From Bdellovibrionales bacterium (GTDB lineage: Bacteria > Bdellovibrionota > Bdellovibrionia > Bdellovibrionales > UBA1609): a DNA stretch of 64,000 bases. Below, one piece after another: positions 24,001 through 27,000 of this stretch (within the stretch, counting starts at the first letter, position 1; each line of letters starts with the position of its first letter). The stretch lies in NCBI GenBank assembly GCA_027317865.1, contig DAHVQG010000002.1:128001-192000 (forward strand), written 5' to 3'. Made by a program: the position numbers.

Positions 24001-27000
24001 CATCATTATTGATCGCGCTTTCAGACGAAACCGCATCGTCTGTCGGTATCGTCGAGCCGTGCAAAATAGATTCAAAAATGTTCGAATCCGAAAAAATTTT
24101 GGGCTCATAATTACCTGTTGTCAGAGAGCCGCGCGCAAGTTGAGCAAGGGCAAGCACCCCGATCCCGGCCAAAACGGCTTTAATCACTTGAGATTTGTTC
24201 TTCATCCGCGTTTTCTTTCAATTCGATTTTTTTTGCGTTCCAGTTCAACAATACGATCGGGAATATTTTACCCCTGCTTTAACAGATCAGAAACAAGCGA
24301 GCCGAACAAAATGCGCGCTCGACCAGCCCCCGTTGGCGTACCGTTAAACAGAAAAACAAATTCGTAAAGGTGCCCACTCCGCGTACCAACGTACCCGCCT
24401 AGACCAACGACACCATCCAGAGTGCCGGTTTTCGCACGAACGACACCCAAATGTTCGGTGCCTCTCAACCAAATGCGTAATGTCCCGTCCACTCCCCCAA
24501 TCGGCAAACTTGAAACGTATTCCGGATAAATTTCAAACCGCCTGCGCACGTGCTCCAAAACACGCAAAAGGTCGATCGGGCGGAATTTATTTTTGTGCGA
24601 AATCCCAGAAGGACTGATCATGACGTAATTTTGCGGTTTGAAGTGCAAACTATTTAAAAATTCATGAATGACCGCCATCCCTTTATCCATTGTCCCTGGC
24701 GGCCCTTTTTCTTGAACGCCCAAGTCTTTGGTCAAGATTTCAGCCATAAAATTATTCGAATATTTCATCATCTCCGAGACCAGCTCGTCGATGGGCTTAC
24801 TTTTTTGAACCGCTAGAATTTTTGCTCCTCGAGGAGTTTTGCCGTGGCGAACTGCGCCGGTGACTGTAATGCCGCGTTCGCGCAAAAAAGCTTTGAGCTG
24901 ATAACCAGACCAAATGGCCGGATGGACAATGCTCCTGTAAGCGACGAACTCAGGCGCACCGAGCGGAATTTCGCCGCTAACCACAACCGTTTCATGATGC
25001 CCCGTTAGATGGTCGTTTTTGATATTTTCATTAATAACAGAAAGTCTCGTGCGCCCGTAACGCGAGGTCCGGGCGCGATTAACTAAACGAATATAAGTGT
25101 TCTGCGGGTCGACATATACCCGAGCGGGCGCGCCAACTTTAAACCCCGGCCGCACGAATACGTTTACCGCGCTCCAGTTGAACGTCATTGCTCCAATCGG
25201 AGCATCATAAGCGCGATCGATAAGCGTCTGATCGCGGCTCGGGTCAAACCGTACGTCGTCAAAACGTGAGTCATCTACAACAATATTGCCGTTAATTTTT
25301 TTTATGCCGGTACGTAGAAATGTATCGACGAGACACCACATCGTTTGCGAGACAAACCCGGGGTCGCCTCCACCGCGTAAATATAGCGGCCCTTCAAGTA
25401 CTCCGTTTACAACAGGCGCGGAGCTCAAAAGTGTGGTCTCAAACTGGTGACCAATCGGCATTTTTTCTAGAACTGCCGCAGCTGTTACAATTTTTGTTAG
25501 TGACGCGGGGGTCATTTTAGCACGCGAATTAAGCTGCGCTAAAATTCTTCCATTAGGTGATGCAATCACTAGACCCAAATCGGAATTTTTAATTCGCGAT
25601 TGGTGCACGAGCTGATTCATCATCGATTGAAAATTTTGAGCCCGAGCGATTCCTGGTATTAGTATGACTAAAGTAAAGAATAGGTTTGTGAACTTCATAG
25701 CCAATCTTCGCATTGATCGCTATGATTGATCAATGACCAAACGGGATTGGGCCCTCAATATTGGCACCGTGTGCGGTATTTGGGCGATTGATTTCATTTC
25801 GAAAATGGCAGCTCGCCATTTCATTCATGGTTTGAAATTTTACGGGCCGCTCGGTTTTATTGTTCATTACAACCCCGGCGCAATGCTTGGAACATTTTCG
25901 ACACTGCCCCCGGTTTTGCGAATTGTCTCACTATCGACCGGCGGCGCATTTTTGGTTTTCATTTATTTAGCGCTACAATATTTAATTCCTAAGCAGGCCA
26001 AGAGATTACGCATTGGCATGTCAATTTTGTTAGGTGGGATCTTGGGCAACGTGACCGACCGAATTTTGCGCGGCCGAGTCACGGATTTTATATTATTCAA
26101 CGCTTTTCATCACTTAACTCCAGCATTTAATCTTGCCGACTCCGTTCAGTGGATCGGTTACGCGCTCATCGTTTTTTCATTAATAAAAGACGGGCACTTG
26201 TATTGGCCCGAGTACAATATCCGCCGAAAAATTTGGGTTAACCCCACGTTTCAAATTCGCTTCATCACAATGCTTATGGCTATGGGTTTGGGGTTTGTGC
26301 TCATCAGCGGCGTCTTTTTTTATACCTATTTGAAGGTCAGCATCAACGCACTTGTCGCGGGAGCAATTCCGGTCATCGAGCATCGGTATTTGGTTCCGTT
26401 TTTCATAACTTACGGAGTGATCTCGTGCGGTTTTTTGCTCATTTTATTTATGGTTGGCCGGATCGTCTCGCACCGAACCGCGGGCCCGCTTTACGCTTTC
26501 GAAAAATTTTTGACCGACATATTAGATGGCAAGGATAGAGAACTGAAACTGCGCGAAGCCGACGACTTTCAACATCTCGAAGAACTGGCGCGTAAACTTC
26601 GCAATTACGTTCGGCAGGCAAATGCGAACTCGTCACAGGTGGTATCAAAGGCGAGCAGCGGTGATCTTATTCAAAAAAAACCGTTTTGATACGGTGTCAC
26701 CTTCGTCACACGCCACGAAAAAATCACCATTCGGATTTCGAACAAGTCCCACCGGGTGAACGGTACGCGAAACTCCGGGACGCGAACCTCCAGAATAAAT
26801 GATTTGTACATCTTTGTGAGCTTCAAGCGCCTCGACTAGCACTCCATAAACCGCATGGCTGCGCAAATCGGCTACCGAATAATGTGACCACATAAGGGGC
26901 ACCGATTGATAATCTAAAAGCGTGGCAATTGTGGCATCGGAGCCCACTTTATCAAAACATTTTAGGGCGACCGACAAACATGCCCGGGCATCATCGAGCG

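Follow-up and report, generated by a model that had tools for sequence, protein, structure and literature searches.

Signal peptidase II (LspA; MEROPS A8) is regarded as a single promiscuous enzyme per cell that serves every lipoprotein. The protein described here shares the fold, the catalytic dyad and 14 conserved residues with the enzymes of P. aeruginosa (5DIR) and S. aureus (6RYO), and departs from them in having six membrane helices rather than four, a cytoplasmic HAMP region, a predicted dimer and a changed pocket and β-cradle. Its tail resembles the output-less 2TM-HAMP (SHRxAGP) proteins, of which we take A. fulgidus Af1503 and HtrII to be analogues, in its two helices, short periplasmic loop and HAMP without an output domain; it differs from these stand-alone proteins in sitting behind a protease and in the degeneration of its second HAMP helix. 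Extra catalytically competent copies beside the housekeeping lspA are also found in M. xanthus (LspA3/4) and Streptomyces, where they sit in antibiotic clusters and, in the part of PMC8689077 cited here, no lipobox class of their own is described. Unlike those copies, the present one carries a fused tail and tracks a lipobox class.

Lipobox proteins of Bdellovibrio are placed on the predator surface or reach the prey, by an export route that is called unexplained in PMC10127604; the parts of the Bdellovibrio papers cited here give neither the box sequences nor the peptidase. Our comparisons draw on parts of these papers and of PMC6952399, PMC6529012, PMC11003981, PMC7511926, PMC4876506 and PMC3276566. 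Neither the fusion nor its associated signal-peptide class (FQNC) is described in the literature as judged by titles and the openings of abstracts, with supplements and subscription journals outside the scope, and the main texts of two Bdellovibrio overviews (PMC13689555, PMC11870529) mention neither the fusion nor the motif terms. The locus represents an LspA subfamily that is conserved and apparently undescribed, and for which a private substrate code is predicted. The reading we prefer, with a probability of roughly 0.65, is that of an active homodimeric accessory SPase II dedicated to prolipoproteins whose signal peptides end [F/Y]-[Q/N/T]-[N/H/Q]-Cys.

A second signal peptidase II with a membrane extension

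The window is a stretch of 64,000 nucleotides from a Bdellovibrionales genome (contig DAHVQG010000002.1, positions 128,001 to 192,000), and its relevant features are collected in Table 1. A first-pass annotation had proposed an intact second SPase II followed by two further membrane helices and a HAMP-like tail, and the domain, residue and structure results support it. The open reading frame is real and encodes 318 residues, of which the N-terminal part matches Peptidase_A8 (PF01252; E 1.8e-21, 77.3 bits versus a cut-off of 25). Its score against the lspA equivalog TIGR00077 is 48.2 bits, below the cut-off of 73.95, and the protein is neither a stand-alone form of about 165 residues nor a sole or ileS/lgt-linked copy, the further marks of a housekeeping lspA. 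All 14 residues given as conserved for S. aureus LspA in the cited part of PMC6952399 are present (D20, K24, N47, G49, G102, N106, D109, R110, V116, D118, F132, N133, A135 and D136). As claimed, all 120 close homologues compared keep both catalytic aspartates; across 303 distinct full-length fusions, many of them near relatives of one another, Asp118 is kept in 297 and Asp136 in 302.

Table 1. Features of the fused gene and related genes, in window coordinates (an arrow marks the signal end)
Feature	Position	Strand	Basis
dacB (Peptidase S13), divergent neighbour conserved in the order; context	24268..25713	-	Pfam
Fused gene, SPase II domain plus 2TM-HAMP module, 318 aa	25733..26689	+	ORF, Pfam, predicted structure
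Peptidase A8 domain, aa 15-151, 14/14 conserved LspA residues	25775..26185	+	Pfam and residue list of PMC6952399
Catalytic Asp118	26084..26086	+	Asp in 297/303 distinct fusions
Catalytic Asp136, then subfamily-specific Gln139-Trp140	26138..26152	+	303 distinct fusions compared
2TM-HAMP module, aa 161-297; R164, Q174, SHRxAGP, R274, D277	26213..26623	+	profiles, model
Candidate substrate, exported protein with FQN↓C signal end	32098..32748	+	one of at least 17 F[QN]NC proteins
Stand-alone tail paralogue, 2TM-HAMP, 220 aa	36363..37025	+	HMM E 4e-5; hhalign 99.5%, the paralogue being one row of that profile

The predicted structure (pLDDT 89.7) contains the four-helix membrane domain with its β-cradle, and the N-terminal half matches LspA (Z 17.5, RMSD 2.2, 147 aligned residues), in line with the earlier structural claim. 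The peptidase half differs in its substrate pocket. Relative to 17 unfused LspAs, the fused enzymes have Met/Ile51 for Ala, Leu52 for Trp/Phe, Ile103 for Ala, and Gln139 for Ile followed by Trp140. Gln139, a polar residue three positions after the catalytic Asp136, occurs in 285 of the 303 fusions and in none of the 17 unfused enzymes, and Trp140 in 284 of the fusions. The β-cradle stretch between Lys24 and Asn47 spans 8-28 residues in fusions (22 here, and 10-11 in the cassette copies of family f17 described below) versus 26 in all 17 unfused LspAs. In the parts cited here, studies of LspA place the loop and helices that hold these changed residues around the substrate (PMC6952399, PMC8689077), and Gln139 may read the polar −1 or −2 residue of the substrate. 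A quick tree puts the fused peptidase domains on one side of a long branch (99 SH-aLRT), with the 17 unfused sequences on the other.

The 2TM-HAMP module and the predicted dimer

The module comprises helices at residues 171-207, 213-264 and 281-308, with a helix-connector-helix arrangement following TM2, and R164, Q174, G251, R274 and D277 are near-invariant in the 303 fusions. By comparison of models, the tail resembles the membrane and HAMP region of WalK (Z 8.9, RMSD 2.1, 142 aligned residues) and the HAMP domain of Aer2 (Z 5.6, RMSD 2.4), at scores that are middling for helical bundles. The HAMP label assigned on first pass holds by homology because 9 of 19 stand-alone tail relatives pass the Pfam cut-off; the fused tail itself falls below it, and a direct search with PF00672 gave no match at E ≤ 1 in this protein or in six other fusions. 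Searching PDB sequences with the tail profile returned E values of 0.02-1 at best, with HtrII as a weak match (E 0.16-0.4).

Contrary to what had been thought, the tail is not restricted to proteins with Peptidase_A8: stand-alone forms appear in the profile results, and the window itself holds a paralogue. A profile built from 46 tails matched 14,611 clusters at 50% identity; the peptidase half is present in 69 of the best 150, and 71 begin with Met and bear the tail N-terminally. By sequence, the tail belongs with the many stand-alone 2TM-HAMP proteins, which form one large family. A word search with the tail alone found 14 proteins, mostly fragments of fusions, and is too insensitive beside the profile search. 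The paralogue in the window lies 10 kb from the fused gene, scores below the Pfam HAMP cut-off (E 0.0025) and, on this evidence, shows that the module exists alone. Output-less 2TM-HAMP proteins of this type (RR..I.P.FQ ... SHRxAGP ... LR..DEF) number several per genome in the phylum, and look-alikes of the tail, 138-152 residues long, occur in four other phyla (Atlas). The neighbourhoods of 19 stand-alone tail genes showed no common context.

Predicted in two copies, the fused protein scored 0.46 versus 0.00 for the best control, in runs with at least 88% contact agreement and pLDDT of at least 70; 20 of 30 solved pairs reached that mark, as did 1 of 23 single chains. The confident contacts all fall within residues 173-299. 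The prediction supports, and does not show, a homodimer built on a TM5/TM6-HAMP bundle, and the score may arise from resemblance to solved TM-HAMP dimers or receptors.

The first-pass annotation had further suggested that the module makes the enzyme a regulated or signalling peptidase. Under such an explanation, HAMP switches a broad- or single-substrate LspA, or LspA senses a lipopeptide and signals to a partner, and the lipobox pattern described below is secondary. The near-invariant residues of the module speak for it, as do the six of 303 fusions that lack a catalytic Asp and still keep the tail, and the thought, in the cited part of PMC8689077, that LspA3/4 of M. xanthus are regulatory. 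A cytoplasmic AhpC/TSA domain (CxxC) following HAMP in 7 of 22 scanned clusters of long or variant forms points the same way. No kinase, cyclase or chemoreceptor output follows HAMP in the usual form or in those 22, however; a methyltransferase-like domain occupies the position in three of them and low-complexity or S74 tails in others. This, together with a tail that alone forms the whole predicted dimer interface, leaves the signalling claim unsupported. The second HAMP helix moreover lacks the [FY]N.M motif found in 52 of 71 stand-alone relatives, and the association with a lipobox class would be left unexplained. We regard a primarily regulatory or sensory enzyme as distinctly unlikely; HAMP regulation is compatible with a dedicated peptidase as an added layer.

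Several forms are longer than the usual one. Fusions of 624-646 residues are present among the tail-profile matches. AhpC/TSA variants include P0173, P0189, P0190, P0192, P0211, P0253, P0254 and L038, and methyltransferase-like ones P0154, P0159 and P0177, two of which lack a catalytic Asp. In G290 (L447:364-2325), the downstream gene, normally a separate one, is joined in frame to the fusion to give about 655 residues, a length shared by G332; the extension has a CxxCH motif and a β-barrel-like end.

Distribution and gene surroundings

A search with a profile of 32 fusions found the full-length protein in 143 of 346 genomes of the phylum (70 of 201 in the first draw). The claim that it is single-copy throughout the order is borne out in 43 of 43 and later 89 of 89 genomes; named records identify the order as Bdellovibrionales, including B. 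bacteriovorus, in which the gene is single-copy. Its range is wider than the order to which it had been confined, with 54 further genomes of the phylum having the fusion, four of them in two copies. Outside the order, it is found in families f17 (36 of 87 genomes), f20 (7 of 16), f19 (5 of 46), f25 (3 of 7), f13 (1 of 30) and f27 (1 of 2), and one extra genome of the class outside the order has the gene split over two frames. In G210 (L449/L453), a genome with 8 atypical-signal matches, the fusion is split over two frames inside the peptidase domain, by either a sequencing error or a real break.

The ordinary lspA reported on contig C11 of this genome is there, between ileS and lgt. A canonical lspA accompanies the fusion in 37 of 37 fusion genomes checked, and the fusion never replaces it. 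Two copies of Lgt are the rule across the phylum (in G000 on C7, L093, and on C11, L094), and we rejected the second Lgt as a partner of the fusion, given its phylum-wide occurrence and failure to track the fusion. Four f17 genomes (G143, G147, G155 and G200; L180-L183) have a degenerate unfused lspA and then an lgt-like gene behind a response-regulator gene, near methylmalonyl-CoA mutase-like and ferredoxin genes (labels read from N termini).

Within the order, dacB lies divergently within 4 kb of the fusion in 48 of 56 full-length named loci, and a 3' exonuclease gene is convergent with it in 47 of the 56. In the window (25698-25733), dacB and the fusion diverge with only 19 bases between their starts, and no ribosome-binding site stands out. 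A −10-like hexamer stops 7 bases short of the fusion ATG, in a promoter and terminator scan that stayed at chance level, and a leaderless mRNA is possible.

An atypical class of signal peptides

The atypical class comprises exported proteins whose signal peptides end in FQNC, FNNC or YNHC in place of L-[AS]-[GA]-Cys, with F/Y at −3, Q/N/T at −2 and N/H/Q at −1; the FQNC class does not match the canonical lipobox [LV][ASTVI][GAS]C. Among 198 candidate signal-peptide cysteines of this genome (7 in a reversed control), 17 have Asn at −1 and about 97 are canonical. At least 17 proteins are of the F[QN]NC type. The signal ends FQN and FNN are about 16-fold over expectation in this genome, with Cys next in 12 of 13 cases. 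Per genome, the class yields 1 to 39 profile matches.

Spirochaete lipoboxes likewise permit Asn at −1 and Phe at −3 (PMC6529012). In the cited part of that work, Asn at −1 belongs to one broad rule, whereas the class found here is a separate minority beside the canonical boxes, takes His and Gln at −1 as well and tracks a second enzyme. Because spirochaete lipoboxes accept Asn at −1, the chemistry does not call for a special enzyme.

The first 12 F[QN]NC proteins have tethers rich in Ser, Thr, Gly, Pro and Asn (65% versus 40%) and poor in Lys and Arg (2.7% versus 9.3%), and 8 of 17 scanned have Pfam matches (Ig, fn3, PKD, GHL15, DUF3443 and DUF7305). Such proteins probably reside at the surface. 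Exported proteins ending [F/Y]-x-[N/H/Q]-Cys are the likely substrate class of the fused enzyme.

Lipoboxes of a widespread cassette

In family f17, two lipoprotein-like genes on either side of a Tat-signal gene make up a cassette with the fusion directly behind it, and the signal peptides of the two end FNH↓C, YTH↓C, YNQ↓C and similar. A close orthologue of the Tat gene is present in 16 f17 genomes, all 16 of which have the fusion, within 10 kb in 14. The cassette as a whole (L035-L045, L115-L177) comprises a DUF1585-like gene, a lipoprotein gene, a gene for a Tat-exported protein of about 490 residues without a Pfam match, and a cytochrome c lipoprotein gene; it is found in 81 of 201 phylum genomes.

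With the prediction set beforehand, we compared lipoboxes at 72 loci from 62 of the 81 cassette genomes, 32 with the fusion and 30 without. Atypical boxes (N/H/Q at −1) make up 54 of 72 in fusion genomes, the other 18 being canonical, versus 1 of 65 in fusion-free genomes, where 64 are canonical. Counted by genome among those with any box, at least one atypical box is present in 27 of 31 fusion genomes and 1 of 27 others. For 42 of the 55 atypical proteins, BLAST finds a canonical-box homologue in a fusion-free genome, and the atypical Cys is therefore the lipobox Cys. When the Tat protein is placed in a quick tree (63 rows), the atypical boxes form two distinct groups, each a clade of fusion genomes; G061, fusion-free and nested on a long branch among an atypical-box clade, keeps canonical boxes.

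Co-occurrence across genomes

A 26-position profile made from 53 atypical signals of 27 fusion genomes matched, at E ≤ 0.001, 118 of 143 fusion genomes and 2 of 203 others. The association extends to the 53 fusion genomes outside the order (30 matched) and to f17, in which the fusion is patchy (28 of 36 with it versus 1 of 51 without). It is also seen in 58 of the 73 fusion genomes that the second draw added and in the first draw minus the training genomes (33 of 43 fusion genomes versus 1 of 131 others). One match, in G128, was rejected, the reading frame stopping four codons past the Cys.

The 32 fusion loci outside the order whose DNA we inspected (of 57 matches in 53 genomes) add linkage. 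An atypical-Cys gene lies within two genes of the fusion at 16, of which 13 are the cassette and three are unrelated to it: LQNC (DUF4331) in G013, FQNC (NHL propeller) in G047 and FQNC (an unnamed family) in G229. Another six have an F-x-N signal end without Cys, and ten have neither, two of these being at contig ends, three having short flanks and two having the cassette farther off. A looser motif was met in 7 of 526 genes at control loci, one of them with QN. Within the order, linkage to atypical-Cys genes is absent (1 of 21 wide loci, 0 of 80 named loci). Taken together, these comparisons favour the [FY]x[NHQ]C class as substrates and suggest a separate maturation route for atypical exported proteins.

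The association has exceptions. Twenty-five of the 143 fusion genomes have no signal-profile match, and a loose search of five fusion genomes gave no match although two have adjacent FQNC or LQNC genes, a false negative. The profile misses single genes, as in G013, G047 and G229, whose FQNC or LQNC neighbours go unmatched, and some atypical genes in fusion-free genomes would therefore be missed too. Real-looking atypical proteins occur without the fusion, one each in G086 (FQNC, one lspA, 97% complete) and G064 (LQNC, one lspA, 94% complete), and also in G320 and perhaps in G140; these assemblies are 91-97% complete. A plain count of DNA patterns separates the order (mean 10.0 versus 1.65 in controls) and fails to separate f17 (mean 4.1 with the fusion versus 3.5 without, P 0.5). 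Sixteen of 17 hand-picked DNA-pattern matches in fusion-free genomes were rejected as not lying at ORF starts, and the seventeenth (FNQC in G103) as an HTTM membrane protein.

The genomes compared are also related. The cassette tree indicates about two origins, to which four or five scattered loci can be added, so that the independent events number perhaps six or seven and P values computed for these comparisons overstate significance. Support for the substrate link is correlative, coming from related genomes. These few origins, the fusion-free cases G086, G064 and G320, and the extra unfused lspA copies common in the phylum would all suit a redundant or antibiotic-tolerant back-up LspA, for which the lipobox match stems from ancestry, co-transfer of the cassette or relaxed lipobox selection. 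Such a back-up accords poorly with the motif-bearing neighbours, which come from unrelated protein families in five bacterial families, and with the motif itself, whose enrichment in this genome is sharp rather than relaxed. G103 and G040, which have extra unfused copies, moreover hold canonical cassette boxes. We judge a mere back-up to be very improbable.

Proposed route for atypical lipoproteins

For a dedicated accessory peptidase, the following sequence of events can be proposed. The atypical proteins have a normal n- and h-region, with Cys, as their sequences show, at the canonical lipobox site of their homologues. This Cys would be lipidated by one of the two Lgt enzymes. The housekeeping LspA would be ill suited to the bulky polar −1 and −2 residues, and cleavage of these proteins would fall to the fused enzyme with its remodelled pocket (Ile103, Met/Ile51, Leu52 and Gln139) and shorter β-cradle, leaving canonical lipoproteins to the housekeeping LspA. 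In the model, TM5/TM6 and the cytoplasmic HAMP form a central four-helix bundle that joins two peptidase domains. The products would be surface or extracellular proteins with Ig, fn3, glycan-binding or cytochrome c domains on long Ser/Thr/Gly tethers.

If a second LspA does have its own lipobox code, lipoprotein maturation splits by sequence into parallel routes, one of them for a class in Bdellovibrionales that is overlooked by canonical lipobox rules. The two enzymes would then form a natural pair for mapping the specificity of LspA, an antibiotic target, and B. bacteriovorus offers a genetically tractable host with a single-copy fusion gene.

Signal ends without cysteine

The six loci outside the order with a Cys-less F-x-N end bear on a different explanation, in which F-x-N is a sorting signal bound by the fused protein, any cleavage proceeds without a lipidated Cys, and the Cys forms are merely the commonest. 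These ends, all within two genes of a fusion, read FQN↓A, FQN↓G, FQN↓F, FIN↓M, FFN↓I and FLN↓F, the last with its signal end read by eye, and a homologue of the FQN↓F protein (56% identity) occurs in a genome of the order too. Two of the six cases are homologous to each other, however, and Cys is the rule elsewhere: it follows nearly all FQN and FNN ends in this genome, as counted above, and 3 of the 4 signal ends found in G121 (about 50 of 91 pattern matches examined). The LspA residues around the lipid site are all kept in the fusion. We consider a sorting signal without lipidation quite improbable.

A broader proposal, which is bolder than the dedicated lipoprotein peptidase we prefer and which we think unlikely, is that an SPase II-family enzyme reads an F-x-N code and cleaves both lipidated and non-lipidated signal peptides, as a HAMP-switchable private export route for surface proteins of predatory bacteria. 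If true, it would in effect define an additional kind of signal peptide, served by a peptidase of its own. The Cys-less F-x-N exported proteins (L033:5963, L043:5099, L051:1386-3821, L052:4870-7719, L049:1018, L405:1137-4124 and L319) adjoin divergent copies of the fusion, and several have β-helix domains.
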